NCBI GenBank assembly: GCA_000165345.1
Contig: CM000431.1
Coordinates: 576,001-640,000 of the forward strand
DNA length: 64,000 nucleotides
Reading direction: 5' to 3'
Positions 18,001 through 58,815 of this stretch are shown one piece after another. Under the pieces are notes generated by a model. That model was not told the DNA's origin, searched no databases, and saw nothing but the letters and a program-made list of their open reading frames with translations. The first letter of the stretch is position 1; each line of letters starts with the position of its first letter. The translations under genes were made by a program, and so were the position numbers.

Positions 18001-18138
18001 CATAGATTTGTTATCAATGAACCCAGCATTGATAAAAATAGGCTAATTTATCTCAAAGATTTTGGAGAGATACACAATGAAAAGATAAGTGTACAGTTAC
18101 AAGATTTCTGTTCCACGAGTATAGACAGTAGATTTTAA
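1..18138 (+). CDS. Type I multifunctional fatty-acid/polyketide synthase, C-terminal ~6045 codons (5' end outside window), intronless
   Basis: The frame is open from nt 1; the track ORF starts at a GTG at 109 only because of the start-codon rule. Stop codon at 18136-18138. Domain order inferred from motifs: ER-KR-ACP, then two full KS-AT-DH-ER-KR-ACP modules, then an NAD(P)-binding thioester reductase and a ~370-aa C-terminal tail. This architecture (three full modules plus terminal reductase) matches what is described for the Cryptosporidium FAS1/PKS1 megasynthases; it cannot be assigned to FAS1 or PKS1 from this partial window. Confidence 0.9.
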   Translation, partial: NENICIPNNSGLWGLAKSANLEISSLLTNFSQPIKSVDLEITDFSDNQYLRKTIGSLVRWIGNFEYSSLKEKENLIFKFEREFSITSKNIYVNRINKFHKQIVGPVELFMQNRGSISNLSLIESEPIQLEKLNDYEVVMRVKSIGLNFRDVLNVMGLYPGDPGPPGGDCSGTVVAVGEGVKHIKVGDNVFGIAPGCLKTYVTTDSNLLCKIPKGFTFEQAAALPVVATTVEYSLKDIANIKKGDIVLVHAVTGGVGLMVVQYCKAIGAKVYGTAGSESKVEYALSNGVERVSSSRNADKFKEDMKDLEGKVDIVINSLIEDFIPNSLNLLKKGGCFVELGKRGIWTEEEMKEKRPDIKYKCVAVDVMMEEDPSWFGGMLTRIKNLAEEGIIESLPLKVFDMRGSDENGIDAFRYMQRAQHIGKVIIKIPYLAGIGDNSIPEECLITGGSGSLGLVLTETLLNEGITNISIISRSGIESQSDSIKAKWEKLFKRILNNKNGNSGIRFFNIDIGNKDSVYKLINTEFKNLKHIFHLAGVLSDSNIETQTRESIEEVFKPKAIGAWNLHNICEELGLNKELKTFVMYSSIASGLGNFGQTNYSAANSCLDSLSQYRVSKGLSSRSIQWGAWDEDGMAMNIRQHLGLVGMSPISKTTGQQVIFDLITTQIYEENRKSATIMCLPIKWKTYINTIYSGENIPQFSLVNTNLRTKRQQNTILLKMSKEERETYIEKQIISLSKSILGVEIKSLDQPLQDIGIDSLAALEFRNALSKKFNIKLSATTLFDYPTIRGIKDHISEKLSVKESIYETNKTQISNLILSQDNLSDDNVGVIAGLACRFPGGCNTPDTLWKSLIRGYSINPLSGKMFNSVGGAFCASREIPIQRWNHNLVYNADPDKTGKCYSYKACFIDSIDMFDNSKFGITNIEAKHMDPQQRIVLETCYEALVAAKIKEETLIGFQMGVFIGCCSNDWSFLQSRKGMAPFTGTGAANTTISNRVSYVFGMRGPSMTVDTACASSLTAACIAMDSFRNKECNGAIVGGVNALLSPNLFIAFCKARMLSVDGKCKTFDASADGYVRGEGCGAIVILKQSEQKKQNTPILGRIKGWGCNHVGRSASLTAPNGPAQTCVIKMALNQSKLNSSDIDYIETHGTGTALGDPIELGALKSVFGRNADYKRSTPLVLGALKSNIGHLEGAAGIAGLIKLVLVLKHETAIRIAHLTKINPHLDLEDFNVIIPQKTVSLKCNKNKLIGGVSGFGFGGCNTHVIVESTEKNKSEDIEAADFSKNHILFVFTGQGSQYINMCKGIYETEPIFRENMNLCNEIVSKILNISLLDIIYPIDGNKDAEFKAMNMLNDTRYAQPAIFAVEYSLAQLWISKGIKPDSVLGHSLGEFIAATISQVMTIEDALTLVTHRASIMASTPALDGIMVACRLTESQVVDTIKRFGLEESASLAAVNGQKSVTISGKKESVYKILEYNNVGSRFRRLDVSHAFHSPLVSEASDKFSKLLENIELKKPTVEFISTVTGKKEIESISTAKYWSKHILNTVRLSDAVYHAIESVNSRMTFIEITSKPILSQLLKALIPVNSSHISVKCTCKLVNSEIDFIQPLEEMQEFGSENSSFTNHANNLDDDSWRFKLLKRRQISWSDISHPIIAPLHDFNDIEWVKENISISKSNARELVEKLEFTCMISPELLDLFDNHKVLGQSILPGAAFVDFMATVALNYTKSQFTLGVIGAMPDWIQLKGIFFRNPFIMSSAKQYKYLNTQFDSQDYSDEDNSSRSSDFNIIMSKGNNCQISIESSLKMDEETVVYATCDEVEYVSSIEAQTKSLCIISEWPSSELISNSKKVSQEDIYEKMSIAGLQYGSRFKTLKEMWKVTSNSAVGIIQSELFTKNCAESPDNLAVYESIMNERGFTIHPTLLDGVLHMCASILGDQSDKETFNELHKRATMVPISINKCLITSKIDTSKYIKGEKYWAFVQLKSSDKDSAIVNVALKSMSGVPIAVLLGVSLRSVKNGVISTHTIKHVIPNELLWRIDWDEVIESITNSEIVSLPTKVNCDNTENESYQGINANLVEKRKVLLLTNSCNISKKELYSEYFTADIVCEASKLSLAEIEATIYGRDDQELPPSPSNEAKYDLICLHIPNSDKNKAIVSLLPVLYLCKILRSMFENKERLIPRVRIITENIFNVDGMNLEFRTNSGVAPFIKSARQELELFSDQSVSLGLIDIETAEDLNKAIILSFVKDILCFKKREDITSNGTLTESQRLFLNTEYEPELVLKKKIKGKEDNCEAHYRIITPKLVSLRGEAAIIGSCKLNLSSRGAINNLELLPLSNEERKCPSANTVEIRVRSIGLNFRDVLNVMGLYPGDPGPPGGDCSGTVVAVGEGVKHIKVGDNVFGIAPGCLKTYVTTDSNLLCKIPKGFTFEQAAALPVVATTVEYSLKDIANIKKGDIVLVHAVTGGVGLMVVQYCKAIGAKVYGTAGSESKVEYALSNGVERVSSSRNADKFKEDMKDLEGKVDIVINSLIEDFIPNSLNLLKKGGCFVELGKRGIWTEEEMKEKRPDIKYKCVAVDVMMEEDPSWFGGMLTRIKNLVEEGIIESLPLKVFDMRGSDENGIDAFRYMQRAQHIGKVIIKIPTPFKYLELDTENHKLNNVGSEKEDRHNNEYGIHVITGGLGGIGRIIIKWMLEEGVRKIAILSRSANNDSLRDIPEIKDYLNTDIIQIECIKCDVSILSQVESAFREILVKFGETNQIHGIFHAAGILMDGAIASQTMEMMESVYAPKVYGAWNLHECCEKFDLNKNLKHFVMFSSVASLLGNFGQTNYSAANSCLDSLVEYRRNKGMCGTSIQWGPWIEQGMAMNIKQHLEKVGMHGISNEMGIRVINDVILYQNTDLDKNSLGKYPVITCQSFNWNVYMRQLYYNSKYPSFFKDVVASMSTGEVKNIGMDFRGMSKEEVYSYVKDSVHNIVEQIIGIQSSTLDLDTPFSELGMDSLSAIELRNALISRFGIKISSTALFDYPTLRSIIQHLTDSLYVSETRDAFSDLGMSISEREYSVAIIGVSCRLPGRVKSFNDLYEIVLLKSKDCITEIPLDRWPFDLYYDPDPDNRSKSYVNQGAFITDIDLFDNTFFGLSSTEATNVDPQQKYMLEVAYEAMYNSGITKRSLTSIKKTAKTGDDPVLMGVFIGCCNTDWHFLQAKFGFENFTSYTGSGGASSLVSNRVSYSFGFRGPSQTIDTACSSSLVAMDAALKSLKEGSCHTALVGGVNLMLSPHLFVAFCRARMLSPDCRCKTFDASANGYVRGEGCGAILLTKRSEIGGKKIRPIAYVLGSATNHNGRSASLTAPNGPSQTEVIQNALRNARLTPNDIDYLESHGTGTPLGDPIEFGALKTVFGNKKDIKRSQPLILGALKTNIGHLEGAAGVSGLLKLILVLKNRIAPKILHFQKLNPHIDTENFDVEFPTELKPIISNKSKLVGGVSSFGFGGCNSHVILESASANELNTESSQNKNYPYLIFAYTGQGCQYINMCKQLYDTEEVFRNEMDKCNELLYPILGRSLISTIYCEKTMESEKLINHTSISQPAIFSIEYSLTKLWESKGIVPSAVMGHSLGEFAAAVTSGILCLKDAITLVARRAEIMASLPQNDGIMVACRVSEDQVLDSINKLNLKDSAAVAAINGPKSVTISGSRSSVMQVLNNLGMEDRYKQLDVSHAFHSPLVSSAEEKFEKVIENIQFFEPKLTFFSSVTGNIESKLLIENKYWAQHIIHSVRYYDALETAISTDEENIAIIEIGPKSVLTSMGKQAVGGIQLVQSSNENISNNELTWIPTIDNSKSNTIDFNDALKAAREYIKYISESVCVHKWNHSRFHWADLTSVHPLLGKFYSSISDENYLAYSTDMLKSKVFKNIVEDHVIFDTNIIPAAALIEASACAAFKLQRSEKFPSKYVEMDSMDIEKPLVSNQDETTSEMEVFVAKSGAIQIRKKCISEAFEYEEEFSGPQIIANDTVFSNSRIYHHASISNSRILSKDEVDKQCFPNLVDYLEKYSSKDTMEVPIDNIYKMMNEIGLQYQKNYQCLKTVKVKIDNSNDEKKIKSSGSNQINEVFCYVKRPISDFDLTELRIHPGMLDSVFQASSVLFASDELLEGKDTTKNKRGHVAMAPIGFTKCFYGRIQHNSDVWGLVKLNRFEKKGNIAFIDVTLWDSKTNILAAHFQDLILKGFSNAASLLSQEVRIPNQFLWRTYNKKIVDRTNYIENSSTFEQENKEDQDKEFNSEDSDHDNQIQKILIFGIPTVIKELICSKMDNKYKKISTTFICLEEDLTIDLIDQKIQEENWSAMFYLGGLMDNLSSKQVMGDILKISQVISTISVSITTAPFVCLTSFNDCKEDGNIPRHSGIKGFVKTARVELENVIGKSINISHIECNSSLVNDPETLMRTISYIASIYEGKIEEEITLERDLTISESGIYAPRLESINFPVFGAIKLTMSSRGAIGNLKFKPQPQSERVNPPANTVEIRVRSIGLNFRDVLNVMGLYPGDPGPPGGDCSGTVVAVGEGVKHIKVGDNVFGIAPGCLKTYVITDSNLLCKIPKGFTFEQAAALPVVATTVEYSLRDIANIKKGDIVLVHAVTGGVGLMVVQYCKAIGAKVYGTAGSESKVEYALSNGVERVSSSRNADKFKEDMKDLEGKVDIVINSLIEDFIPNSLNLLKKGGCFVELGKRGIWTEEEMKEKRPDIKYKCVAVDVMMEEDPSWFGGMLTRIKNLVEEGIIESLPLKVYDMRGSDENGIDAFRYMQRAQHIGKVIIKIPTPFKYLELDTENHKLNNVGSEKEDRHNNEYGIHVITGGLGGIGRIIIKWMLEEGVRKIAILSRSANNDSLRDIPEIKDYLNTDIIQIECIKCDVSILSQVESAFREILVKFGETNQIHGIFHAAGILMDGAIASQTMEMMESVYAPKVYGAWNLHECCEKFELNKNLKHFVMFSSVASLLGNFGQTNYSAANSCLDSLVEYRRNKGMCGTSIQWGPWIEQGMAANLKQHLEKVGMYGISNELGIRVLNDILCFVSKSSSVIGCQSLKWDTFMRRYNTIPTFLSEVDYSSQGRSQGRVDISKLSDEELVVVIAQVAQQCASSPTLPSPDTVLLDLGLDSLGAVEFRNSVLEMTGVKLPQTLVFENPTIYAISMYVRDQNSGNSTKSDSKKHSQTSNEQAKMTIEQWLLSSLKQSERYILYAEAFEKKYQTISNLITETDIISALEELGVENNQDYDLLYVSWNELISSEEENSKKQNDSNSKKLEQELIFDPIADVEEIKNSMKLDLDGISTTTDPSEFKTALLTGVTGFVGRILLVKLIEEFKNMQIVCLVRASSSEKGLERIINVCEEAEVWNPTYASRIIVECGNFEEEYLGLSEERYYELCKEIDVVYHIGGDVNLLSNYKRLRKTNTLSLVGIINFCTTIKLKHLHFSSTLGQFPAFFAVFTREFENAVVKETEGPSTREMSRLFPPTRQGYPWSKWAAEQILETAHQQGLPLSIYRLPNTYIASDTGYTNKTDYATALLIASILEGMFPIGSSTAPLTPVNTICEIIISASKKKERKHWRYNLLDTRILGKKHVEAWASQLGLGNYKGVAIDEFFSAIKSRGPESPIFKFVPLMQYWRHYWFDNTERTQPFPVDTSNVSEDMPEISWPPLEITFQNSFLYCAKRGYFPSNSSSISFTPIKCYSDALNEIKAELSLRNVNFNQNKYDFICRKMQKNADSIYDSLKKVSLNFCAKYSYYILLKQSIVNQYIVQESLNDSILEKFKMMDCYFITGTSFEEILELRRVIRKLLNNYNELKFVDIACPYLPTKNSRRLILEQLKIATSILPLKRFEAVDLDEILTDDSILLEMFMFAPFTLPLIYGKEYFEEYKNKITGCSEVMEAYSSFKNYIIQTLIKNNYNTEYPIIFSSPFHLPFVKEILQIFENSKIIVVDNKPDNSTIQGKLSMVKSLKSKYTNLDVSEEENSEVYLLDILEEMKHRFVINEPSIDKNRLIYLKDFGEIHNEKISVQLQDFCSTSIDSRF
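409..1290 (+). other. Enoyl reductase (ER, MDR/zinc-ADH-like) domain, module A
   Basis: VVMRVKSIGLNFRDVLNVMGLYPG...; NADPH fold motif VHAVTGGVGLMVVQYCKAIGAKVYGTAGS. Confidence 0.8.
451..1270 (+). repeat. Intragenic direct repeat copy 1 (ER coding segment, ~0.82 kb)
   Basis: Nucleotide sequence from gtattaaatgttatgggattgtatcccggt... onward is near-identical to 7075-7900 and 13561-14386; only a handful of substitutions. Confidence 0.9.
1318..1930 (+). other. Ketoreductase (KR) domain, module A
   Basis: Rossmann motif ITGGSGSLGLVL; SDR-type YSAANSCLDS region. Confidence 0.75.
2160..2390 (+). other. Acyl carrier protein (PP-binding) domain, module A
   Basis: LGVEIKSLDQPLQDIGIDSLAALEFRNAL with phosphopantetheine-site Ser in DSL. 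Confidence 0.8.
2476..3815 (+). other. Ketosynthase (KS) domain, module B
   Basis: Active-site Cys in TVDTACASSL; HGTGTALGDP and NIGHLEGAAG His motifs. Confidence 0.85.
3850..4740 (+). other. Acyltransferase (AT) domain, module B
   Basis: FTGQGSQY entry motif; GHSLGEF active-site Ser. Confidence 0.85.
4930..5800 (+). other. Dehydratase (DH, hot-dog) domain, module B
   Basis: HxxxGxxxxP motif HKVLGQSILPGAAF; C-terminal LDGVLHM segment. Confidence 0.7.
7039..7905 (+). other. Enoyl reductase (ER) domain, module B
   Basis: Same motifs as ER of module A; nucleotide sequence almost identical. Confidence 0.8.
7075..8580 (+). repeat. Intragenic direct repeat copy 2 (ER+KR coding segment, ~1.5 kb)
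   Basis: Near-identical to 13561-15066 over ~1.5 kb, and to copy 1 over the ER part. Offsets between copies are 6624 and 6486 nt. Confidence 0.9.
7990..8600 (+). other. Ketoreductase (KR) domain, module B
   Basis: ITGGLGGIGRII Rossmann motif; YSAANSCLDS. Confidence 0.75.
8870..9080 (+). other. ACP domain, module B
   Basis: LDLDTPFSELGMDSLSAIELRNAL. Confidence 0.8.
9160..10480 (+). other. Ketosynthase (KS) domain, module C
   Basis: IDTACSSSL active-site Cys; HGTGTPLGDP; NIGHLEGAAG. Confidence 0.85.
10520..11400 (+). other. Acyltransferase (AT) domain, module C
   Basis: YTGQGCQY; GHSLGEF. Confidence 0.85.
11590..12420 (+). other. Dehydratase (DH) domain, module C
   Basis: HPLLGKF...IIPAAALIEAS hot-dog motif; IHPGMLDSVFQ. 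Confidence 0.65.
13525..14390 (+). other. Enoyl reductase (ER) domain, module C
   Basis: Third near-identical ER copy. Confidence 0.8.
13561..15066 (+). repeat. Intragenic direct repeat copy 3 (ER+KR coding segment, ~1.5 kb)
   Basis: See copy 2. The copies diverge at ...aaacaacatttagagaaggttggaatg... Confidence 0.9.
14475..15085 (+). other. Ketoreductase (KR) domain, module C
   Basis: Nucleotide sequence identical to the KR of module B over about 0.6 kb. Confidence 0.75.
15300..15500 (+). other. ACP domain, module C
   Basis: LLDLGLDSLGAVEFRNSV. Confidence 0.8.
15940..17000 (+). other. Terminal NAD(P)-dependent thioester reductase (R) domain
   Basis: LLTGVTGFVGRILLVKL glycine-rich NAD-binding motif immediately after the last ACP; YPWSKWAAE (Y..K) region. 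This is the chain-release domain expected at the C-terminus. Confidence 0.7.
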
Positions 18139-20750: not shown

Positions 20751-20967
20751 TTGCATAATTTTGACTGGAATATTACTTCATGTATTTGAGTTCATTAAGG
20801 TTGTGGGGCATGAAAGTTGGCTTGCTTCCCCTCATAATCTGATTAGCATTTATTTAATCAATAATTCAAGAAAAGTTGCTATTAAAGAAATAAATATGTC
20901 AGAGTAAGTCGACTAATAATATCTAAATTAATGATTTCATCTATTTAAACTTTCAATTAGCTGCTTT

Positions 20968-24157: not shown

Positions 24158-24605
24158 ATGGAGAAAAGATTTGATCTGAGATACTGTGAAAAATTTCCAA
24201 ATGATTCACTATTAAACGGATTTGCTCCAAGAGATCTTGGTACAAAACCAAAATGCTTGCCACAGCAGATTCAAGAAACTGTAAGTTGGGAACAATAACT
24301 TTTCGAATATTGAATAATGCCATTTCTCTTAGGGGTTCATTCGGACATTAGAAAATGAGTTGAATATGCTTAGTGCTATACAAGGTTATCACTCAGCTGC
24401 AAAATCAAGAATGGAACAGGATTTAGTTTCGAAGGTTCAAAGACATCCAGGAATTCCAAGCTCTCACTTGAGCCTTGATCTACTAATGAATATGGATGAC
24501 AAGATCGAAATAAGCGATATTCTAGGCACGGAGAAACCTATCAATCCATTGGGCAAGAAGACAATCAGCGACACATTAGAGTCAATATTCAATATCAATA
24601 GTTAA
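24158..24605 (+). CDS. Hypothetical protein, 2 exons (24158..24280, 24333..24605) joined over a 52-nt GTAAGT...TTAG intron
   Basis: Track ORFs 24065..24298 and 24360..24605 become one frame when 24281-24332 is removed (donor ACT|GTAAGT, acceptor TCTCTTAG|GGG). The first ATG is at 24158, so the start is uncertain. No family recognised. Confidence 0.45.
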
Positions 24606-30404: not shown

Positions 30405-32759
30405 TTAAAATTTACAGTATCTACTAGCAATATCCAATATTTTTCTGTAGACTAAATCAATGAAGCAACTTTCTAGATTCGAGGGAATACCATTGTTAGA
30501 GTATTCAATTAGTAGCTTTAAAATAAGAAAACCTAAGTCATTTGCGATCCCCTTAGCAACTGACGGTGTGAATCTCTGTTCGATGTAAGACGCAACGTCC
30601 TCGATTAGCCTATCAATCCTATCTGGGGAAACTTTAATTGGCACCTTCTTCGAGAATCTAGCCAATAGAGGCCCCAAGTGAAAGTTTAGCATATTAACAA
30701 CTTCTCTTAAGTTCCATTCGCCGCAGCCTGGAAGAGACAAATGAATGAAGAATCTGTAGGGCTACACAAGTTATTTCAGCTAAAAGACATCGGTGGATTT
30801 AAATAACAGCTCAGACAAATGCCTCGATTGTAATCAACACTAGCCATATGGCTAATGCAATTGATACAAGATAACTGGCAAACCCTTCGATAAGCCCGCT
30901 ATTATATCAAATTCATGCTCGTCATCTGATTTATCATCATTACCAGATAAATCCACGCAAGAAACAACATACCTGAAACATTCTGGTGCAAACAATATTT
31001 TTACTTGTAGATGTGCCAAAAATCATTATTTCTGAATGCATCCATTTGTTCGAACGAGATATAATATCAAAAAAAAACATCAATGAAAGAAGCGTATTGT
31101 TTTCTTCTAGCAAATACTGATCTATATCTTCAATGACCAATATATATTTACGTTTTCTTGTACAAACATCAATAATTTCTTTCAAGTATCTTTCAAAAAA
31201 TCCAATAGTTGCGTTGAAAATGTCTGCAGTATGTACGTATTTAATACTATAGTTTAAAGAGTCGGCAATTGAAGAGACGAGAAAGCTCTTACCTAAACGG
31301 TGATAAATATTTGTTAAATTAAATACAGGCATCAAATTTAAGGCTCAAATTTTCAACATGAAGAATTAGTGACCTATCATATAGTTATTTTCTCATTTGC
31401 CTGACTAAAATAAAACTTACCACAACCCTTGTCACCGAAAACAATAATACCAGACGCTTCATTAAAAACTATAGGAAGTCGAAAGTTCGATATTTCTGAA
31501 TATGAAATACAGGGGAGCAAAAGATTCTTTATTTTGTGAATTACTTGGCCAAAGCCAGTCATTTGAATTAATCCATTTTTGCATGAACCGCTCTCTCTAT
31601 CACAGCTAGAATCACAAATTGTACAATTTGAATTACTGACTGATTTATTCAATCTCCTGATAACGAAGTTAAAATAATATAAAAATACATTAAAAAAGTC
31701 AGGTATTACACCATTGAGGACTATTGCAACAAATCTACCGCACGAAACAGTGTATGGAATATCATGCAGTTCTTCATTTAAAACGTCAGCGATGCGAACC
31801 AGGTCAATCTCATTTACAATGAATTTCAATTCTTCATTGGATAAAGCCATAATATATTTGGAGTGAATGCTAGAAATTTTTTCCATCAGACAATTCAGAG
31901 AAATTTCATTTATATCATATCTTTTATAAATTAAGAACCTTAATAAGGAAATTTTATCGATCTGGAGCGAGAAGTTTCTGAAATCTATTTCAAAAAATTC
32001 TCCATATCCATACTTAAATATATATCTTATATCCATAGTCTTTGACTGTAAAATCTTATTCGATGTGCCATAGTCATCTGGGTCTATATCCGAAATAAAA
32101 AATGAAACAATTGGAATATTTTTGTTATCCCAAATACGGATAAATTTAGAGATCAAATTAAGAATAACTATTTGTTTTGAAACATCACCATAGTAGTTAC
32201 TATTTGGTCCTGTGTAATATTTATTTGGATTTGCACTTCTAAAACAAACCAATATGGCAGGAGGGGAAAAAGGTCCACTGCATAATGAGTCTCTTAAGCG
32301 CACCCCTACTTTTGATATAGACGTTAATTTATTATTCAAATAATAAATCTTCTTGTCAAAACAATCAGTAGTTCTCGTATCAATAAAATATTCATCAATT
32401 GATATATTGAAAGTCACGGGATTAAAGGATTTTGAGTTTTCAAAGTAACAAATCTTTGAGAAGCTAGATAACAATTCTCTTGCAAAGTATCTCTTTCCAG
32501 ATCCACTATTACCTATTAGAATCAAAACTTTCGGAAGTCTGTCAATGAAAAGGTTAATACCCACTTCAGTCGTGTCAATATCACAAAAATTAGTCTCATA
32601 TCTTTTTAGCAACAATAGATAGAATATCGACCCAATTTTTTCAAAGAAATCATCAAGCAATGGGCCGCCTACAAATGATTCATCCAGTTCCAATCTCCAT
32701 TTAAAAAGAAAAAAGGAGATCCATCTCAGAGGAATCTCGTCGTACTTGTCCCAATACAT
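30405..32759 (-). CDS. Divergent ORC1/Cdc6-like AAA+ ATPase with two tandem P-loop modules; at least 3 exons (32759..31421, 31292..30973, 30761..30405), 3' end uncertain
   Basis: Walker A GNSGSGKR in module 1. In module 2 Walker A is GDKGCG|KS, split by a 128-nt GTAAGT..TTTAG intron, and Walker B is YILVIEDID. ORC/Cdc6-type wording LLSLMFFFDIISRSNKWMHSEIMIFGTSTSKN and CTRMFQ|PYRFFIHL is split by a 211-nt GTATGT..TAG intron (compare ORC1 LGLTRMCFQPYTY). Intron positions are supported by restored motif continuity. Further 3' exons are possible (see ORF 29892..30140). Confidence 0.5.
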
Positions 32760-36625: not shown

Positions 36626-36636
36626 ACAAGATTATA

Positions 36637-38923
36637 TTATAGAAAAGTTAATGATAGTGCTAGTATTAAGGGTGATAGTAATCCTATCAGCAAATGTTTG
36701 AACATTGTTGATTTCAAGCACCTATCATCCCTAAATAAATGAAATAAATTTTCCGTAAAAATTTCATAAAAATTCTTCCCGTTGTAATTACACATATTTT
36801 TTTCTATTTTAATTTCCACCCAACTGATCCACTGCAAAATAGGGATACTTTTAATTATTTTATACTGTTTTGAAACCTGGTCAAAACCATCCAATGATAA
36901 CCTATTACAGAAATTATTTATCTCTGCTGAAAAATATTGTTTATTACGACAAAATATCTCGTTCCCTAAAACGGAGTTCCAAATAGATGCAGAATTTTTC
37001 GCTTTGCTAATATCGAAACCAAGATTATAAATAAAATGTTTTGAATTTAAAATATTTGCAATATCTATCAAAAAATATCTTGTCTTCATTGCTATTTTTG
37101 ATAAAATACATGCATAGTAGTCTCCTTTCTTTTTATAACAACAAAAATTTAATAAAATCACCAGGAAAATTGTCCAGATTATAAATTTTCGAAAAGCTGA
37201 AGAATCCATGATAAAAATAATAAATAGAATGATGGGAATAATAAAAACCAAAATGCTGAAATTTTTTGTTGAAAGAATAATTGAGAAGGCAATTAGAAAT
37301 ATTTTATTCATTATCTTAATAGAATTAATAATATCTTTGTATGCGCTACTATTCTTTTGAACATTAAATAGTTTAATGAATATATTAATGCTTGAAGTAA
37401 CAAAAAATGTGATGAAGAAGACCACAAAAGTTAATGCAATAAACAAGGGCCACAAGTTTGTATATTCGGATTCAGATAAATTGGAGCAATCAAATAAAGA
37501 ATTACCAATTTTATCAAATAAATGCACAACCAAGAGTATTATTGGAGCAGTTATTGAAATCAAACAAGCTATTAGAATAATTCCAATAAGTAGAATACTG
37601 CTTTCTTTTGATATTTGTGCTAATATTCCGATCGAAAATGATATTAACATCAGAATAATTGGGACTAAATAAATACCAAAGTTTAGTGTTGAAAAATATG
37701 ATGTAAAATAGTATTTGTTACTTGATTGATGCAATTCATCATGAAGGTTACTTTGAATCTTAACAATACCTTCTAAAAATTTATAAATCTCAAATTGTTG
37801 AATTGGAAATATTGAAATGAACTCGTTCGCATCATTGCTGTCCTTAAAATGATCCCAAATTTCATTATTCGCTATCGAAAATTCATCAACCAAAGAAAGT
37901 GTAAATGAATTGATATTATTTTGCAAAAATCGACTGTGAGGTTTATACGATCCTTTATTAAACGCTTGCCTGAAGCAATTATTTGGCAAATTAATGGTTT
38001 TTAAAAGCTTACCTTGCAATTGAATCCCAAAAATTCCTTGTAATTATAGATATAGGAGGATAGGTGAAGCTTGATTCAACTTCCCTAATAACAGAATTGG
38101 GGAAATCTTGATTAGTTTGTAGTCCATCCATAGATTCTACTAAAAGTTAGAAATTAACATACATGATTGAATCAACTTACCGATGTCAATAAAGACTCTT
38201 GTTGGAGTTAACGATAATATTTCAATACAAATTGCAGTTCGTATTCTACCATTGTATTTTAGCAGTCTTTGGTCAATTGCCAGATCCTTCAGAAATGAGT
38301 TAATTCCCATTGAATTTGGAATGTTCGAATCCGTAAAAAGTAGAATTATGTCTTTCGAAGTCCAGTAAATCTTTTCAAAATGTTTGGAAAGAGGAATAAT
38401 TAAGCCTGCTGCACTACCCAGTTCATCTTTTCCATCTTTATATTTCCATGGAAAGGAAATAGAAATTATTATTACTTCTGAAGAATCGCCTCTTTTTGAT
38501 GGAACTACAGCTGCAATATACCCGGAACTTAAGAGGTATAAATCTTTATATCTGTATGAAGAGAAGTTTTTATTTTTTATTATATCAATGTCTCCAGAAT
38601 CATCGCATTCAATGCAGTGAGTGTCCCTTGCGATAGAATTAATTATGCTTTGCGCAACCAATTCAGCGTTACCCGATTTTTGAGAAGTTAGTATCTCTTG
38701 GGTTACTTTCTTATATTCAAGTACGATGCTGCGGTCAACTGTAGCCTTATTTACTCCTTCAGAAAACCCACTTTCTTTTACTTGCGTAACTTTATCAAAG
38801 CCTGGAAGAGATAAAAGAAATAAAACCCCAATAAGCAACAGAGTTAATCTATAAAGATAAGAATGTAGTTGAATTTGAAAGCTTACGCACTTACCTGATT
38901 AATCCAACCGTAGTAAAGCTCAT
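36637..38923 (-). CDS. GPAA1: GPI transamidase component GAA1/GPAA1, 4 exons (38923..38895, 38848..38181, 38139..38013, 37969..36637); introns 46, 41, 43 nt
   Basis: GLIIPLSKHFEKIYWTSKDIILLFTDSN matches human [53 protein letters not shown] matches [23 protein letters not shown]. Multi-TM C-terminus. The only in-frame ATG is in a 29-nt first exon (MSFTTVGLI|R) joined by GTAAGT...CTTTATAG. Two internal GTAAGT/GTAAGC introns restore the frame between track ORFs 38140..38838 and 36637..38019. Confidence 0.75.
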
Positions 38924-38970
38924 ATCCAGCACAGTTGTAATTATTAAGGTATTTTACCCTTTGTATTTGT

Positions 38971-38976
38971 GCGCGC
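38971..38976. promoter_or_regulatory. GCGCGC box in the divergent GPAA1/DDX54 spacer
   Basis: ttgtgcgcgcatg, about 50 nt upstream of the GPAA1 first exon. Confidence 0.3.
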
Positions 38977-39235
38977 ATGAGAAGCTTACAGTTTATACCT
39001 CGTAAAAATTGAAAGTAATGTGGAATTTAATTTATAATAAATGTAATATAGATTTTCACATAACACCAAAGAGACCATTTCTTTTTGGTTGCAACATATT
39101 TGCGATATTTTTGTCCGATTATACATAATTATTGTATTAATTTTTTTTTGAAATTTAGAATTTTAACACATCTTGCCCGCAAAACAATTATCTCTTTTAC
39201 CGCACAAGCAAATTGTCATTTTTGACGAATATTAA

Positions 39236-43409: not shown

Positions 43410-43912
43410 ATGAAAAAGACTCAAATATCAAACGGTAAGTAATTCAACTATCACTATATGTTATCATTCTGTCTCAGTTGCAAGTGGGATTTTGTCTAGA
43501 TCGGTTTTGAAAGGAGACCCTGTTTTTTCGCAAGAAGACTTGTCTAGCAGAAAAATAATTAAAAATGAAAGCAAAAAGCACAGTAAAAGAAACGTAAGTT
43601 ATCTTCATGATAAAAACTTCTAATAACTTATATAAATAGGCTAATGAAAATATTTTGAACACAATTTTTTTAAAACAAACCGCAAAGAATCAAAGGGAGA
43701 AGAGTTTGAAGCAGTTAGCGACGAAAGGAGTCGTAAAGTTCTTTAATATGATAGTAAACTATCAGGAAAATTCAAACATCAAAGCAAGTAAAGGCACTAG
43801 TAGTCCGAAAAATGCAGGACATTGCACAGAAACTAGGAAGGTAAAAAACGTGGAGTCCAACATTAAACCAAATAGATTCGGAACAATTGTTGGAATGCAT
43901 TCAGATAGGTAA
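43410..43912 (+). CDS. RRP15: RRP15-like rRNA-processing protein, 3 exons (43410..43434, 43478..43593, 43640..43912); introns 43 and 46 nt
   Basis: Only its last exon is in the ORF track (43655..43912). LKQLATKGVVKFFNMIVNYQENS matches human RRP15 [23 protein letters not shown]. Donors ACG|GTAAGT and AAC|GTAAGT; acceptors CTGTCTCAG| and TATAAATAG|. Start codon is 67 nt from the divergent RABGGTB start. Confidence 0.7.
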
Positions 43913-49449: not shown

Positions 49450-50519
49450 CTAAATCTTTTTTTTTAGTGCTCTTTCTCGGATATATTTGGTCTGTGATAT
49501 TCTTATTTTATTCCAAATTGGTCGAGGGATCATATTTGCCTGAATACAAAGTATCAAAAAGTAGTTACACTCTTTATTTTACTTACTATTAATAGTTGTA
49601 TTCGATGACCAAAATAAGGAACAACCGTCGAGTAAACCGATGGAGTTTTTTTAAGCATCTTTATAGATTCAACAGAAAACCTAAGAAACCAATCAAGATG
49701 CTATAAAAATAATAGCTTACTACTTACCTTTTTGTTGAAATTGTGAACAAGGTTTCTCTTTTGGCTTTTGATAGTTTAGTGGTAACTAGTAAAGGAGTAT
49801 GGCATTGGATTGTGATATTCTCGGACTCACATTCCGCTCGTAAACTTCTACATAGAGATTCGGCGACACTTTTTGTAGCGGCATACGCGGAATAGAGAGG
49901 GTCAGTCTGAAGCTGTGACGACCCACTTCCTATACACAAAATGGCTCCCCGATCCCTAAGCATATGCATTATTTATTTAGTAAAGTTTGAAAGCACTACT
50001 CACCTCTTTTTCATGTAGCTGTAAACAATGCGAGTCATCATTAATACAGACCTAACATTCACTTCTATTAATTCATTAATTAGATCCAAACTAGTCTCTT
50101 CAAAATATTGTGCATACGGATATGAGATGCCAACATTATTTATTAGAATCCCAACATCATCAATTGAATTCAAATATCCGCAAAAATTTGAGTAACAAGT
50201 CGGGTCAGTAAAATCCATTAAATAATACCTTATTTCTTGATTTGAATCTGGTTTTTTCAAGGATAGCAACTAGGGCAAGAATTAGTATTTTTGAAGCATA
50301 TTTAAAGCTTACCTCATTTACAACATTTTGCAGCTTTTCTCTATTTCTTCCTATTAAAATTAAGTTTAAATCTTCTTTAAACAATTCCTTTGCCATTGCT
50401 TTTCCAATTCCGTCGCTTGCGCCAGTTATAATTGCCCAACTTCCAAATGAAGTAAGTTTTTTCTCAGGTCTGTTGAGCAAGAGAAATAATTTGTTTATGG
50501 CCATAGAAAGATAATTCAT
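49450..50519 (-). CDS. Very-long-chain 3-ketoacyl-CoA reductase (HSD17B12/IFA38-type SDR of the ER fatty-acid elongase), 5 exons (50519..50313, 50269..50004, 49955..49728, 49680..49587, 49539..49450); introns 43, 48, 47, 47 nt
   Basis: Three track ORFs (50205..50540, 50000..50269, 49724..49969) plus two further exons assemble into a 294-aa protein colinear with human HSD17B12. Matches: WAIITGASDGIGKAMAKEL / WAVVTGSTDGIGKSYAEEL; VGILINNVGISYPY / IGILVNNVGMSYEY; GAILCIGSGSS...YSAYAATKS (YxxxK); HTPLLVTTKLSKAKRETL; C-terminal PIWNKIRISQTKYIREKALKK / PSWIYLKIVMNMNKSTRAHYLKK. Donors GAG|GTAAGC, AG|GTGAGT, AG|GTAAGT, ATA|GTAAGT. Confidence 0.8.
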
Positions 50520-50668
50520 TATTAATTTAATAAAATTCAAGCAAATAATTCCTGCTATTTTACTAATATTAACTCATTGCGGCAGGAATTTTACTTAAGC
50601 ATAAATTCATTTGATCTTTTTTTTCTTAATCTGGAAGATGTTAACATTTATTTTCATATACTTTAAAC

Positions 50669-51034
50669 TTACTTTAGATCTTCTAATTCTGTCTCTTGAA
50701 CCTTAACAAAAAGGCAAGTGCAACATTTATACAAGATTATCAAAGTCATCCCCAATATAACCAACGACAACAAAACAAGACATAAATAAATCCACCATGG
50801 CCATGCTGATGCACAAATATTTGACATGGTATTTTGTCGGCAAGATGTAATTGAATCCACTTTTGATGTACAGAAAAATTCTGAACTACTCGAAACTTTA
50901 CAAGGCGAACAAAACTTAGAAAGCTGGCATTCGCCACAAGACTTAATTGATCTGCAAATATTAAATATATCGACTTCGGTCAATTCATTGCGACCGAAGG
51001 CAGAAGTTCTATTCACTAAGATGCTGCTACTCAT
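50669..51034 (-). CDS. Hypothetical small Cys-rich protein with a C-terminal transmembrane helix
   Basis: CGECQLSKFCSPCKVSS...; TM WPWWIYLCLVLLSLVILGMTLIILY; short Cys-rich tail. The track ORF extends to 51100 from a TTG; the first ATG is at 51034. No family recognised. Confidence 0.4.
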   Translation of the reverse strand: MSSSILVNRTSAFGRNELTEVDIFNICRSIKSCGECQLSKFCSPCKVSSSSEFFCTSKVDSITSCRQNTMSNICASAWPWWIYLCLVLLSLVILGMTLIILYKCCTCLFVKVQETELEDLK

Positions 51035-52557: not shown

Positions 52558-55186
52558 TCAATTTTTTTTTTTGCGAATAGGCCTTTTTTGATGCTCTTTG
52601 TGTTGTTTGGATAAATTGTCAAAGTCATTATACTCAAATAACTCTGATATCTCCTTGGGAATTTCATCAATATTAGCGTTATTTTTGGAATCGGGATCAG
52701 CCGTTTCTTTTATCGTGTTGTCTTCAAAATTGTCCACAATATCTACTCCTTTATCCAAACATTGAAACTTGTGACTGTGAAATTTTCTCTTTTCGCATGT
52801 AAAATAAGATTTTAAGTCATGATCAGCGGTTAAACCTGAATGTGTATTGGATGATAAAATGTTTGAACCATTTTTTCTGCAGTTATTTAAAGATTGAGTA
52901 GATTTAGATAATAATTTAAATGATTCGAGCATTCTAGAAAAAACTCTGCATTTCGAGCCTCTAGATGCCTTAAGGTTCAAATTACAAATTACAACAATAT
53001 AGTTCTCAAGTAAATATTTTAAAATTAACTGAATATTATTTCTGCATATAAAGTCAAGCATTTCAATTACCACGCTTTCCAATATTGAACCCTCTCCTCT
53101 ATTTCTTGGCACCTTTAATTGGTCCATTATTAAGAAAATGTACTTAAAAATATCATGTTTAGTGAATAGACGGTAATAAAAGTCGTCTCGAGTTCCCAGG
53201 CAAGTTCTCAAGAATTTAATAACTGAAATAGAAAAAATTTTATGAAATGGTCGAGTAGCGATACGTAGCAATTTTCTTGGCAATTGATTTTGAAGGATTT
53301 TGTATTTAATTCTGTAGTTGTGTTCTTGTACGCAAGTTGCGAGAATATCGCAAAATAATACTCTTGCAGAATACAATGGATTGAATTCAGTAAAAATTAA
53401 AGAGTCGTTGAGCAAGCTATCTATTAATCTGTCTAGAATGCCCATATCATAAAATAAAGAGAGTGAATCATCTCTTTCTGGAACATCCATAGTCTTAGGG
53501 TCCAATATTCGTTTAAAAATTGCACAAATTTGCATTTGGATGCTCTCACTCCTTGAATTAATAAAAATTTCGCATAGAGTTCCCCATAGTGAATGAAATA
53601 AGTTAGATTTGTCGGATAAATTTTCCATTTCTTTAATGCTTTCTTTTGGACTATTTTGAAGAGCATCATCAGCATATAAAATATCGACATTCGAGCCATA
53701 TATATTAGTTTCTTTATGAACTTTAAAATATTGAGAAGTTGATTCATGAATAGCGTGTCTCAAAAGACCAGGATTAATTTCGCAAACCATTGAATATATT
53801 TCAACTGCTAAATCAATTGGCCTTATATTAGAATAATTTATGAATGATAAATCATTAGTATTTGAAAAATTTTTATGATCATCATTTGAAGTGGATAATT
53901 CTAACATCTGCCTAGCTCCAATACAATTTTCATTTAAATATCCACAAAACTCACATAAAATATTGTTAACTTTAAGATTTATGAATATTTGATGTCGTTC
54001 ATAAATCGAAAGCATTGGGTTTTGTTTTAAAACCGTCAATACTGCATGAATAAATTTTGCAACAAGAAAGTTTTTCTGAATGTTTTCCTTGAGATATTTC
54101 CAAATATCGCTTGTAGTTACGATCATACTAATTATCGATGAAAAATTATTATTAATTATTGTTGCTATTCTTTGAAGGCTTTGCTCATCAAGATGCCTAG
54201 GCATAACAACATCTCTTAAATACATTAACCTATAGTTAAGATGAATTGTTCGAACTTCTGGTAAAGGAACAACACTGTGAAATTTAACATTTTCTAAAAA
54301 CTTCTTGTGAGAAAATTTTATTTTATAATTTTCCAATGTCTCGTCATATTCGCAAGCTTTAAAAAATTTTAAATAATATTCATCGCTTAATAAGATTTCA
54401 AATACTTCATTGAAGCTACTGTAGAAAACTATTATTCTACGAAGTACTTGGAATATTTTATGTAGCCCAATCAAATCAGAATTTTGTTCAAATTCTTCCA
54501 TTAGATTAAAAAGTGAATCAAAAAATTCTCTACTTAATAGATCCATAACAATATTTTCAGAATTAATATTGGAATCAAGTTCTAGATCATCAATTATTTG
54601 ATCTATATTACTTGAAGTTGGCCTCTCTAATAGTGAATAGCCCGTACTTTCTTCTGGTAATTCTGCTTCTAATAGGTCAACGCACAGATGCGGAACTAAA
54701 GAAGTGATCATGTTCCATATTGAATTACAACTTTCTGAATGCTGGAAACTTAATGCCCTGTATAGATCTGAATTTAGTCCATCCTGCCAAGTAATAATAC
54801 TTTCTTTTTGATGGCAATACTCTCGATTCAAGTCAATAGGAGTGTTTACTAATTTAACTATATTATAGTTTTCTATTTCTAGTAAATCCTCAATATTTTT
54901 TCTTTGTGAGTGCAGTTCTTTCTCAAAATTTGGATCTTCGTCACTTAAGACCTAAAAAAGTAAATAAAAAAACGGTTATTTATATTAAGCTTACCAAAAT
55001 ATTAAACTTATCATTATCCTTGTTTAATTTTAAAAAGCCAGTTCCGCAGTCAATCCAGTTACCATTTTCAGGATTTACTTCGTAAAGTTTAACCCTACGG
55101 TATTCCAATGGCCATGCATTAAAACAATAAACTTTATGCTCTGGGATTGAAATGTTTTTTATAGACTCCAGCTCTGAAAAAGCCAT
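52558..55186 (-). CDS. Protein phosphatase 4 regulatory subunit 3 (SMEK/Psy2/falafel), 2 exons (55186..54995, 54951..52558); 43-nt intron
   Basis: EVH1-like N-terminus RRVKLYEVNPENGNWIDCGTGFL (compare SMEK [22 protein letters not shown]) in track ORF 54980..55186, joined by TTG|GTAAGC...CTTTTTTAG|GTC to the main ORF. SMEK core similarity: IITWQDGLNSDLYRALSFQ; armadillo-like remainder. Confidence 0.75.
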
Positions 55187-55648: not shown

Positions 55649-58600
55649 TTATGAATGATTCTTGTTTTCTAAAAATAGTTTGATCTGATCTTTAAGGCAT
55701 GTCTGAGGTATTAATTCATCCTTTGTAAGAGGAAGCCTATTAAATGGGTCTACGCCATCAGATATCAATATTCTTTCAATTACTTTTCTATCCATTATTT
55801 TTGAAGACGTTGGAAGTAATACAGGATCTTGCATAATATCCTGCATAATTGGGTCCAGAAATTCCTCCGGTATGTCTGTTTCGTCTATATTAGTCATACT
55901 CTGTCCAACTTCATTCTCTTCAAGCTCTTTCTGCAAATATTTGACAAGTTGGTTAAAGCAATCAGATTTACTTTTATTCATCAATCCTTCTCTTCGAGCA
56001 ATATGGTGTGCCTTTACAAAAGTATGAATCTTAAAATACCTCTGTTCATTTATTATTTCCAAAATCAAAATTTTAGAAAAATCTGTCTCCATTGGCTTAC
56101 ATTCAACTTTAGAATTAAATGCAAGAGTGACATAGGTCATGCAAACATTAGCCAATAGTTGCCTGGGATTAAAATTATAAGCATCGAAATTGCTTACTTT
56201 CAGTTCTAAGCACTTTGGTCCCACTAGCCGATCAAGTGTACAATTCAAGCAAGTCACAATTTGAGGCAGTATTAGTGGGGAGTCTAATATTTCAAAAGTA
56301 TAATATTCCGTAATTTTTTGCAATAAACTCGCCGACGCATGTGAAAGTTGCATATAACCTTTGCATGCATGTTCTAATCTTTCTATAGGCATTTCTTCGA
56401 TTGTACTCTCTATTTCTTCATGATTAGAACTTCTTGATTCATTGTTGGAGTTACCAAACTCATTATTATTAATACTAATAGAATTAGGAACTTGATTGCG
56501 CTTTGACTCTCTCTTTTTTATCTCTGCTAGCATTGAAAGTCCCTCCTCAAGTAGATAGTTCAGATCTGAAACGAGTAAATGAATAAATTTAGTAAATGAT
56601 TCATCTCTCTGTTTAATAAATTTATGTAACCTTTCTCTGTGCAAGTCCACTTTTAATAGAGACTCAAATAACATGATAATAGGTAATCTCAACGAGAACC
56701 GATCAAAGTATGGTGACTTTTGTACATCATTGAAAAGAGAAATTAAAGCTGGAAGAATATACTCTGCAGTAAAATCACTAGCTTCTATTCGATGCCTAAA
56801 TTGAGGAATCTGAAGAAGGTAGTGTATCCCAATTACACCTCTTTGGCACCTAATGTGAGGATTTTTGAAATAGTTTCCATAATTTATTATAAAAATAACG
56901 AATGAAATATATGAATCAAAATCGAAACCAATCAAAATTTCGTCGTTGCCCTTAATTCTTAACAATAGCTCAGTAACTGATAATACATCTTCAATTAAGC
57001 AAGATGGGAGCGATGAAAACTGTGGTGAAGGCTTACTAGATGGAGCAGTTGACTTAAGCGCTACTGCGATTCGGCCTTGTTTAGAAGCTAGTAATGTATT
57101 CCTATCACAATTCTCAACCCCATTTTCATCAAAAGAATAAATTGTTCTAAAAATAAATTGAATAAATAGAGATAAAAAATGCCAAAATGCGGAAATAGTG
57201 TTTTGATGGAAAACTGCGCATTCAAATGATAATGCCTCGCAGCTTAATTGCTCAAGATGATGGTCATTCTTATATTTATGCCCAGAAGTGAGTCCGCTTC
57301 TATAGTCATTTAAATCATTTAGAATACTCTCATATTCAAGTAATACTGGCTGCATAAAACATTTGATTGATTTACACGAAATCCAAAATATTTGAGTTGG
57401 GAATTTGATAAAGTCTTGATATTTTAGATTAATTTGATTTAAATCACTCAATTTCTTCTTTGTTAAATTTAATGCAATTTCCACCTGGTCTTTCTCGCCA
57501 AGAGTTGCATCATTTACTAAATCTCCTAAAAGATTATGAACCTCATTGCAAATATCATTTAATTGGTTAAATCTCCCGTACATATGAAAAAAACAGTCTA
57601 GTTCTGAAACCTTTTCAATCTTAACTGGCTGTAATAGTCTCAACACTATGTGTAAATAATTAATTGAAAATCCACTCGTTGAAAGACCAGAAGTTCTCAT
57701 TATTAGAGAGCGTAAGTTGTGTTGAATTTCTCGTGAATTTTGGATATTTCCAAACATTGACAAATCTGGTATTGAATTGTATATTTTTGATTTATCTTCA
57801 TTTGAAGTACATATAATGCCCATCCATTTTATTACCATTCTTCTACATTCTGTGCTTGCTTTAAGCATATTTTTTATTACTAGAGCTGAATGTTCATATA
57901 CCAACGAAAGATCTTGTTTAATCAGCATCTTACTTTGATTGATATAAGAATGAGTCTTAGATAACAATCCTGAAAAATATTTCATAATGGTAGGGTTTAC
58001 ATTTGTTTTGAAATCTTTGTCTATTGGATTTGGGCTAATAATACAACCCAAGAGAGAGTTTTGCTGTTGAACCAAACCTGATGATACCTTCGTTCCTTGA
58101 TTTGTATTAGATGACTTAATAAATGAGGGGGTTTGTGTTAAAATAAATGTAGTTTGTTTGAATTGGCTGAGAAAGATAATATTTTTTATTGAATGAAGCT
58201 TTAAGTCAGTAAATTTTCTTTGTCTAATAATATCCATTTGTCTCTCAATATAGTCGGTGAAGGTAGAAACAAATAATTTAGGATCGTTACTTTCCATTTC
58301 TTGTATCAATGTGAGAAAAAATGAATTTGGAACTGAAATTTCAAATAGATCTGAGATTGCACACTCACTGTTACATACTATTTCGAAAAGTTCAGGGCAC
58401 TGAATTATTAATGCACAATATTTGGGGAAAAATTGAGCAAGGTTTGAAATCCTTTCATTAATTTCGATTTTCTTAGGAATTGAGCTCTCATTAATAAATT
58501 TGTTATATGAATCGATCAAAAACTGAAATGCTTTAATTCTAGGTTTATTATCTGTTGTCGAGAAAAAAATTTTCAATCTATGGAAGATAATATTCTCGAG

Positions 58601-58774
58601 ATCATCGAATAATAGTGCAACCTTCTTTTCTTGAATTAACAATTCATTCTTGTAATCACTCAAAAATATCCGCTTTGTTGATGGATTTTCAACGGGGTTG
58701 TCAGTACAAATCAGTGAAACCCCAAGAAGAGCACCAATGAGTGAATTTTCAATTTCCTCCTGATTAGTTAACAT
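55649..58774 (-). CDS. Ubiquitin conjugation factor E4 (Ufd2) with C-terminal U-box
   Basis: C-terminal U-box IPEEFLDPIMQDIMQDPVLLPTSSKIMDRKVIERILISDGVDPFNRLPLT. A ~1000-aa helical Ufd2-core-sized N-terminal part. Confidence 0.75.
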   Translation of the reverse strand: MLTNQEEIENSLIGALLGVSLICTDNPVENPSTKRIFLSDYKNELLIQEKKVALLFDDLENIIFHRLKIFFSTTDNKPRIKAFQFLIDSYNKFINESSIPKKIEINERISNLAQFFPKYCALIIQCPELFEIVCNSECAISDLFEISVPNSFFLTLIQEMESNDPKLFVSTFTDYIERQMDIIRQRKFTDLKLHSIKNIIFLSQFKQTTFILTQTPSFIKSSNTNQGTKVSSGLVQQQNSLLGCIISPNPIDKDFKTNVNPTIMKYFSGLLSKTHSYINQSKMLIKQDLSLVYEHSALVIKNMLKASTECRRMVIKWMGIICTSNEDKSKIYNSIPDLSMFGNIQNSREIQHNLRSLIMRTSGLSTSGFSINYLHIVLRLLQPVKIEKVSELDCFFHMYGRFNQLNDICNEVHNLLGDLVNDATLGEKDQVEIALNLTKKKLSDLNQINLKYQDFIKFPTQIFWISCKSIKCFMQPVLLEYESILNDLNDYRSGLTSGHKYKNDHHLEQLSCEALSFECAVFHQNTISAFWHFLSLFIQFIFRTIYSFDENGVENCDRNTLLASKQGRIAVALKSTAPSSKPSPQFSSLPSCLIEDVLSVTELLLRIKGNDEILIGFDFDSYISFVIFIINYGNYFKNPHIRCQRGVIGIHYLLQIPQFRHRIEASDFTAEYILPALISLFNDVQKSPYFDRFSLRLPIIMLFESLLKVDLHRERLHKFIKQRDESFTKFIHLLVSDLNYLLEEGLSMLAEIKKRESKRNQVPNSISINNNEFGNSNNESRSSNHEEIESTIEEMPIERLEHACKGYMQLSHASASLLQKITEYYTFEILDSPLILPQIVTCLNCTLDRLVGPKCLELKVSNFDAYNFNPRQLLANVCMTYVTLAFNSKVECKPMETDFSKILILEIINEQRYFKIHTFVKAHHIARREGLMNKSKSDCFNQLVKYLQKELEENEVGQSMTNIDETDIPEEFLDPIMQDIMQDPVLLPTSSKIMDRKVIERILISDGVDPFNRLPLTKDELIPQTCLKDQIKLFLENKNHS

Positions 58775-58807: not shown

Positions 58808-58815
58808 TGCGCGCA
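58808..58815. promoter_or_regulatory. TGCGCGCA box followed by long A tracts, upstream of the UFD2 gene
   Basis: cctgcgcgcaaaaaaaaaagagaaaaaaaaaaaaag, about 35 nt upstream of the UFD2 ATG (minus strand). Confidence 0.3.

Follow-up and report, generated by a model that had tools for sequence, protein, structure and literature searches.

Start codon and splicing of the Gaa1/GPAA1 gene of Cryptosporidium parvum: a predicted 29-nt first exon and a tandem acceptor at intron 2

How does a long open reading frame (ORF) that holds no ATG ahead of its conserved N-terminal residues obtain a start codon? This question is raised by positions 36637-38923, minus strand, of a 64-kb stretch of Cryptosporidium parvum chromosome 3 (G+C 33%), which was analysed at its full length and is called the window here. 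An initial annotation, made from the letters of this DNA, had proposed that the ORF belongs to a gene for GPAA1 whose start codon arises only by splicing. Our analysis supports that interpretation with corrections, and the feature is real, ordinary and previously annotated. It is very probable that 36637-38923 is the C. parvum Gaa1/GPAA1 gene, encoding a subunit of the glycosylphosphatidylinositol (GPI) transamidase, with four exons, three short GT-AG introns and a main product of 717 amino acids. Both the gene and its four-exon structure are already known, being in GenBank for C. parvum and C. hominis. The predicted structure is listed below in the order of transcription; here and in the text, a slash within a sequence marks a splice boundary.

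38895-38923, minus strand: exon 1, 29 nt, ATGAGCTTTACTACGGTTGGATTAATCAG; it holds the ATG, nine and two-thirds codons (MSFTTVGLI plus AG) and the start of the N-terminal membrane helix.
38849-38894, minus strand: intron 1, 46 nt, phase 2, GTAAGT...CTTTATAG (...TATAG).
38181-38848, minus strand: exon 2, 668 nt; it completes the first transmembrane helix (TM1) and goes on through the PGFDKVTQVKESGF motif into the lumenal domain, of which it encodes the first half.
38137-38180, minus strand: intron 2, phase 1, GTAAGT...CTAACTTTTAG/TAG; 44 nt is favoured, while the acceptor of the initial annotation gives 41 nt (38140-38180).
38013-38136, minus strand: exon 3, 124 nt (127 nt with the upstream acceptor), encoding ESMDGLQTNQDFPNSVIREVESSFTYPPISIITRNFWDSIA(R).
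37970-38012, minus strand: intron 3, 43 nt, phase 2, GTAAGC...TTCAG.
36637-37969, minus strand: exon 4, 1333 nt with the TAA stop counted in; it holds the end of the lumenal domain, the membrane-helix cluster, a long Cys-containing loop and the last helix.

Reading in frame from an upstream TAA, the first ATG encountered is the one at position 38923. When the 250 nt upstream were scanned for combinations of an ATG, a GT[AG]AGT donor and an AG acceptor that keep the frame open, exactly one solution was found in C. parvum, and the proposed 46-nt intron with its GTAAGT donor is indeed present at 38894-38849. The original description of the ORF as lacking any in-frame ATG was correct for the 189 conserved N-terminal residues, ahead of which none exists, and incorrect further on, where the first ATG of the exon 2 frame appears at codon 190 (..NSMGINSF..). 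Spliced with a 41-nt intron 2, as first proposed, the coding sequence has 2157 nt and encodes 718 amino acids without an internal stop, starting MSFTTVGLIRLTLLLIGVLFLL; with a 44-nt intron 2 it has 2154 nt and encodes 717 amino acids. Retention of any of the three introns would shift the frame.

An upstream start (MITTVLDM...), as found in some C. hominis and C. tyzzeri models, was considered and rejected for C. parvum, where the codon is ATA and a TAA lies further upstream. That start depends on a second in-frame ATG, which C. hominis has 21 nt ahead of the conserved one and which the protein model of C. tyzzeri suggests for this species too. With ATA at window positions 38942-38944 (minus strand), only the conserved ATG at 38923 is usable in C. 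parvum.

The identity of the gene as GPAA1/Gaa1 was borne out by profile comparison. The Pfam family PF04114 (Gaa1) matched the spliced protein at residues 123-534 with 47 bits (cut-off 28.6, E-value 2.7e-12), the alignment ending at position 418 of the 497 in the profile, and a precomputed PF04114 match exists in 8 of 10 orthologue clusters. The profile of the genus alignment, compared with the PDB, detected human GPAA1 (7w72_A, E-value 2.1e-4, and 7wld_G) and, apart from the human GPAA1 chains, no match reaching an E-value of 0.01. A homologue search returned Cryptosporidium proteins only, several of which are named GPI transamidase component Gaa1 or GPI anchor attachment protein 1; a second, word-indexed search with alignment gave the same 10 Cryptosporidium clusters and nothing further. 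Distant Gaa1 proteins were reached only through an exhaustive profile search, which collected 124 relatives. Ten of these were sampled: nine are Gaa1 by Pfam, and the tenth is a C-terminal fragment without a Pfam match. The spliced protein thus aligns with human GPAA1 at the profile level and with distant Gaa1 proteins, the alignment that had been suggested as a check; identity to homologues from outside Cryptosporidium is about 20%.

The 717-residue translation, obtained with the downstream acceptor of intron 2, is identical to QOY42583.1/WKS76978.1 at 717/717 residues (locus tag CPATCC_001232), and QOY42583.1 is named 'GPI transamidase component Gaa1 [Cryptosporidium parvum]' by one source. 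The model of the initial annotation is identical to this public Gaa1 model apart from Val233. Equivalent tags in other assemblies are CPHLJ_3g2325 and CHM_3g2325. The gene identifiers in Baptista et al. 2022 carry the CPATCC prefix, as QOY42583.1 does (PMC8744675). From the known function of the family, the protein would have its biochemical role in GPI anchoring.

Is the 29-nt exon a property of the genus or an accident of one genome? The locus was compared in nine species, namely C. parvum, C. hominis, C. meleagridis, chipmunk genotype I, C. ubiquitum, C. canis, C. felis, C. ryanae and C. bovis. The three introns occur at the same positions and in the same phases in all nine, while their sequences and lengths drift and the lengths are not multiples of 3 (intron 1, 46-52 nt; intron 2, 44-49 nt; intron 3, 41-52 nt). 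This sharing of three introns in the same phases is far beyond chance. Exon 1 is likewise recognizable in 9/9 species as an ATG followed by an open exon of 26, 29 or 44 nt in total, a GTAAGT or GTGAGT donor in phase 2 and an intron ending in AG, in agreement with the proposal that a 29-nt first exon supplies the initiator Met in C. parvum.

The N-terminal sequence of the product leads to the same start. A hydropathy peak covers residues 1-31 (helix at about 5-27), as expected from the hydrophobic signal-anchor that had been attributed to exon 1. Straight after this helix stands LPGFDKVTQVKESGF, which aligns with FPSFDRKTEVEEHAL and YPEFSHRTYISENAL of distant Gaa1 proteins and in which Glu35 is invariant; TM1 together with the PxF[DS]xxTx[IV]xE motif is kept across distant Gaa1 proteins. 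Because the motif is conserved behind a helix and no ATG precedes it in exon 2, the helix must be encoded upstream, and since only the 29-nt exon supplies a Met, this exon makes the N-terminal signal-anchor arrangement of the family translatable. A gene without the first exon, translated from Met190 within exon 2 to give 528-529 amino acids with the upstream part of the ORF untranslated, was adopted by two older public C. hominis models. We rejected this start and consider it very improbable: residues 1-189 are strongly conserved in the genus and many positions from 43 to 185 do not vary at all, they contain the TM1 and PxFDxxT motif common to distant Gaa1 proteins, and the Pfam homology begins at residue 123, before Met190.

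Given the start at 38923, the next question is how the frame of exon 2 is connected to that of exon 4. Introns 2 and 3 had been proposed, with 41 and 43 nt, to restore the frame; both introns are present in the sequence and conserved in 9/9 species, but intron 2 is most likely 44 nt long. They had also been thought to join the lumenal and membrane parts of the protein. This is not the case, since they fall after residues 232 and 273 of the 717-residue form, both inside the lumenal domain, and the next membrane helix starts only at about residue 365. Exon 3, which lies between them, shows the strongest nucleotide conservation in the gene (59-99% identity); in C. ryanae and C. bovis, the species most distant from C. 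parvum, the introns on either side of it have 46-55% identity. Its nucleotide differences at first, second and third codon positions number 3/1/15 in chipmunk genotype I and 3/3/16 in C. ubiquitum, a third-position bias seen over the 41 codons compared (ESM..SIA). Exon 3 also carries the conserved E(G/S)xxGxxPNxD motif of the family: DIESMDGLQTNQD aligns with human VAVEGLNGQLPNLD, and exon 3 aligns to VEGLNGQLPNLDL of human GPAA1.

These properties decide against a single 144-nt intron (38180-38037, acceptor CAAG), which would run from exon 2 straight into the 460-codon ORF, leave out the middle exon, treat intron 3 as coding sequence and yield 698 amino acids. When this form was rebuilt, its frame stayed open in C. 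parvum and C. hominis, whereas in 6/9 species, including C. meleagridis with 90% protein identity, a stop inside intron 3 closes the exon 4 frame. The segment that would be skipped is the best conserved, evolves as coding sequence and holds the family motif. The comparative data effectively refute this intron, to which we give practically no credence, and its rejection in the initial annotation was sound.

The size of other candidate introns in the window is in agreement with two short introns, as had been argued before. A scan of the window for GT[AG]AG[TC]...AG pairs gave candidates of 57, 52, 46, 46, 43 and 48 nt, mostly 43-57 nt, with a few longer ones (two of 110-128 nt). These candidate short GT-AG introns have GTAAGT-type donors and each link two long open frames. 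The candidates below come from the scan only.

20904-20960, plus strand: candidate intron.
24281-24332, plus strand: candidate intron.
43594-43639, plus strand: candidate intron.
60205-60250, plus strand: candidate intron.
54952-54994, minus strand: candidate intron.
49956-50003, minus strand: candidate intron.
31293-31420, minus strand: candidate intron.
50563-50672, minus strand: candidate intron.

For C. parvum as a whole, the 2015 reannotation places introns in about 11% of the genes, with a length that averages about 99 nt (PMC4637869). Baptista et al. 2022 state that RNA sequencing (RNA-seq) supports 100% of the introns in their annotation (PMC8744675).

Which acceptor, then, terminates intron 2? 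Its 3' end reads TTTTAG/TAG/AATC (TTTTAG/TAG at 38145-38137), so that two adjacent in-frame AGs are available and a 44-nt intron is as much present in the DNA as the 41-nt intron first proposed. Use of the upstream AG adds a single codon, Val233. The two junctions and their products can be told apart as follows.

38181/38136, minus strand: junction with the downstream AG, GACATCG/AATCTATGG.
38181/38139, minus strand: junction with the upstream AG, GACATCG/TAGAATC; peptide VFIDIVESMDGLQ...
Tryptic peptides distinguishing the two acceptor forms: VFIDIESMDGLQTNQDFPNSVIR and VFIDIVESMDGLQTNQDFPNSVIR.

The tandem TAGTAG occurs in C. parvum, C. hominis, C. meleagridis and chipmunk genotype I. In the other five of the nine species, C. 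ubiquitum (TTTTATTAG), C. canis, C. felis, C. ryanae and C. bovis, an AG exists only at the downstream position. The downstream AG, being present in all nine, is the ancestral and universally available site; judging from the aligned introns, the upstream AG is a lineage-specific novelty, which arose when T changed to G in the ancestor shared by the parvum/hominis/meleagridis/chipmunk clade. Furthermore, the 717-residue form aligns without a gap across the junction with a divergent Cryptosporidium-like Gaa1 (P0023) and with coccidian-like and other eukaryotic Gaa1 proteins (DIESMDGLQTNQD versus DVEGINGMVPNQD), and the alignment with human GPAA1 is likewise gapless there, so the Val would count as an insertion against all the homologues aligned. 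Taken together, the downstream AG (44-nt intron, 38180-38137) is probably the main acceptor.

The same gene could instead be spliced at the upstream AG (41 nt, 718 amino acids, with Val233), or at both AGs to give two isoforms, and some observations speak for this. All four species of the clade have the upstream TAG in frame, and three public gene models adopt it. Tandem acceptors in which both triplets are [ACT]AG form the class most often spliced both ways, the first AG being usually favoured. Against it stand the absence of the upstream AG from five of the nine species and the insertion that the Val would represent. The likely CTAAC branch A, as read from the sequence, lies about 7 nt before the upstream AG, while the corresponding distance is about 10 nt for the downstream AG and about 9 nt for the AGs of introns 1 and 3. 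The downstream AG is the one used by the model from the annotation for whose introns the authors report full RNA-seq support and by several later C. parvum and C. hominis annotations. In addition, alternative splicing is reported to be very rare in C. parvum, and the Gaa1 gene is absent from the three putatively alternatively spliced genes of Baptista et al. (PMC8744675). On balance, we judge main use of the upstream AG, or use of both, to be unlikely. Equally doubtful is the corresponding pair of Gaa1 isoforms, which would differ by one Val just before the E-x-x-x-G-x-x-x-N-x-D motif.

Several points weigh against the 717-residue, four-exon structure that we prefer. The first AG after a branch point is often the preferred one in splicing, and the public models of C. 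hominis UdeA01 (CUV05115.1), C. meleagridis and chipmunk genotype I take the upstream AG and keep the Val. Two exact searches of metagenome contigs with the spliced-junction sequences gave 0 matches. An AlphaFold2 prediction on a shallow alignment of 8 sequences reached a mean predicted local distance difference test score of 37 and a predicted template modelling score of 0.24, too poor for a fold search.

The remainder of the protein also resembles Gaa1 in its order of parts. In alignment A3 of Gaa1 proteins, G237, D243, L353 and S356 are invariant, and an LHxSF-like motif (LHQSS) stands before the C-terminal membrane-helix cluster. Kyte-Doolittle peaks in this cluster are located at about 365-396, 389-429, 443-475, 487-539, 531-554 and 694-717, these being peaks and not a count of helices. 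Between the helix block (about 365-554) and the last helix (694-717), residues about 555-690 (window 36700-37260, minus strand) make up a loop roughly 140 residues long, which has conserved cysteines and contains a PILQWISW motif. The loop is conserved within Cryptosporidium and did not align with Gaa1 of other eukaryotes; the exhaustive profile search gave no distant match past profile position about 570.

Older or automated public models disagree at this locus: they start at Met190, drop exon 1, skip conserved residues or differ in the tandem acceptor. Comparative sequence alone settles most of this, as it fixes the correct structure and favours the 44-nt intron 2. Public models of the orthologue (proteins P0002, P0005 and P0006 among them) are inconsistent. 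Exon 1 is present in the DNA of C. felis (L003, 1398-1426; region 1398-1472) and C. bovis (L006, 1316-1359; region 1316-1406) and omitted by the public models. The public model of C. tyzzeri skips conserved residues around introns 2 and 3, that of chipmunk genotype I has a truncated C-terminus, and that of C. canis lacks about 15 residues where our exon coordinates go out of frame.

A literature search on the gene identifier cgd3_2325 gave no match, and the supplement of the 2015 reannotation paper lists cgd3_2320 and cgd3_2330 and not cgd3_2325. The literature found for Cryptosporidium with GPAA1 (host-cell CRISPR screening) or with GPI transamidase/Gaa1 (Aspergillus glycosylation) does not treat the parasite gene.

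On the chromosome, the Gaa1 gene is flanked by a divergent gene for a DBP10-type DEAD-box helicase, with 312 nt between both ATGs, and by a convergent gene for a membrane phosphodiesterase. The order helicase, Gaa1, phosphodiesterase is kept at all 8 orthologous loci fetched. The stops of the phosphodiesterase gene (ending at 36625) and of the Gaa1 gene (ending at 36637) are separated by 11 nt (36626-36636), and the stop-to-stop gap is likewise tight, 11-19 nt, in C. meleagridis, C. ubiquitum, C. felis, C. ryanae and C. hominis. With such spacing, the 3' untranslated regions of the two genes must overlap in antisense. One short motif was noted in the divergent spacer.

38969-38979, minus strand: CATGCGCGCAC motif, about 46-56 nt upstream of the ATG and inside the 312-nt divergent intergenic region; candidate promoter element.

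CATGCGCGCAC has one match in the window, and its core is found upstream of Gaa1 in 9/9 species; the CATGCGCGCAC/GCGCGC sequence may have a promoter function. GCGCGC occurs once more in the window, at 58809-58814, about 35 nt upstream of the ATG at 58774 of a minus-strand ORF (55649-58774).

From these features, the following course of expression can be proposed. Transcription would start in the 312-nt divergent promoter region common to the Gaa1 and helicase genes, and three very short spliceosomal introns (46 nt, phase 2; 44 nt, phase 1; 43 nt, phase 2) would be removed. Splicing of intron 1 would join the 29-nt exon, with the only usable ATG, to the long ORF, and the protein would then begin with the signal-anchor helix, behind which stands the conserved PxFDxxTxVxE motif. 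Introns 2 and 3 would flank a 41-codon exon that encodes the E-x-x-x-G-x-x-x-N-x-D motif of the lumenal domain. The downstream AG of TAG/TAG would give the main 717-residue protein, which is expected to be a membrane subunit of the GPI transamidase complex in the endoplasmic reticulum.

The significance of the locus beyond annotation quality is small. Several Cryptosporidium surface antigens are GPI-anchored, and Gaa1 is part of the machinery that attaches such anchors, so that work on this pathway gains from having the full-length model right. Elsewhere in the window, positions 109-18138 (plus strand) hold a 6009-codon ORF with repeated KS-AT-DH-ER-KR-ACP modules and a terminal reductase domain. 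Its DNA repeats every 6.5-6.7 kb with up to 96-98% identity, and the ORF looks like the giant type I fatty acid synthase known from C. parvum.

Compared with known systems, the C. parvum protein shares its main landmarks with human GPAA1 (7w72 chain A; 7wld chain G) and yeast Gaa1. In both, an N-terminal helix is followed by a PxF..T.(I/V)(S/E)E motif, the lumenal domain contains a ..D(I/V)E(G/S)..G..PN.D.. motif, and an LHxSF-like motif precedes the C-terminal helix cluster; the first two are as in C. parvum, which has LHQSS at the third. The C. parvum sequence is, however, very divergent from human GPAA1 (E-value about 2e-4 to the human chain) and carries, before its last helix, the Cys loop of about 140 residues (about 555-690) that did not align outside the genus. 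With respect to QOY42583.1, the initial model has the same four exons and the same start in the 29-nt exon, and is one residue longer (Val233). NAGNAG tandem acceptors are described mainly in animals and plants; as at intron 2 of the Gaa1 gene, the choice of AG in them inserts or removes exactly one codon, whereas use of both sites here is only a possibility and the upstream AG is specific to one lineage.

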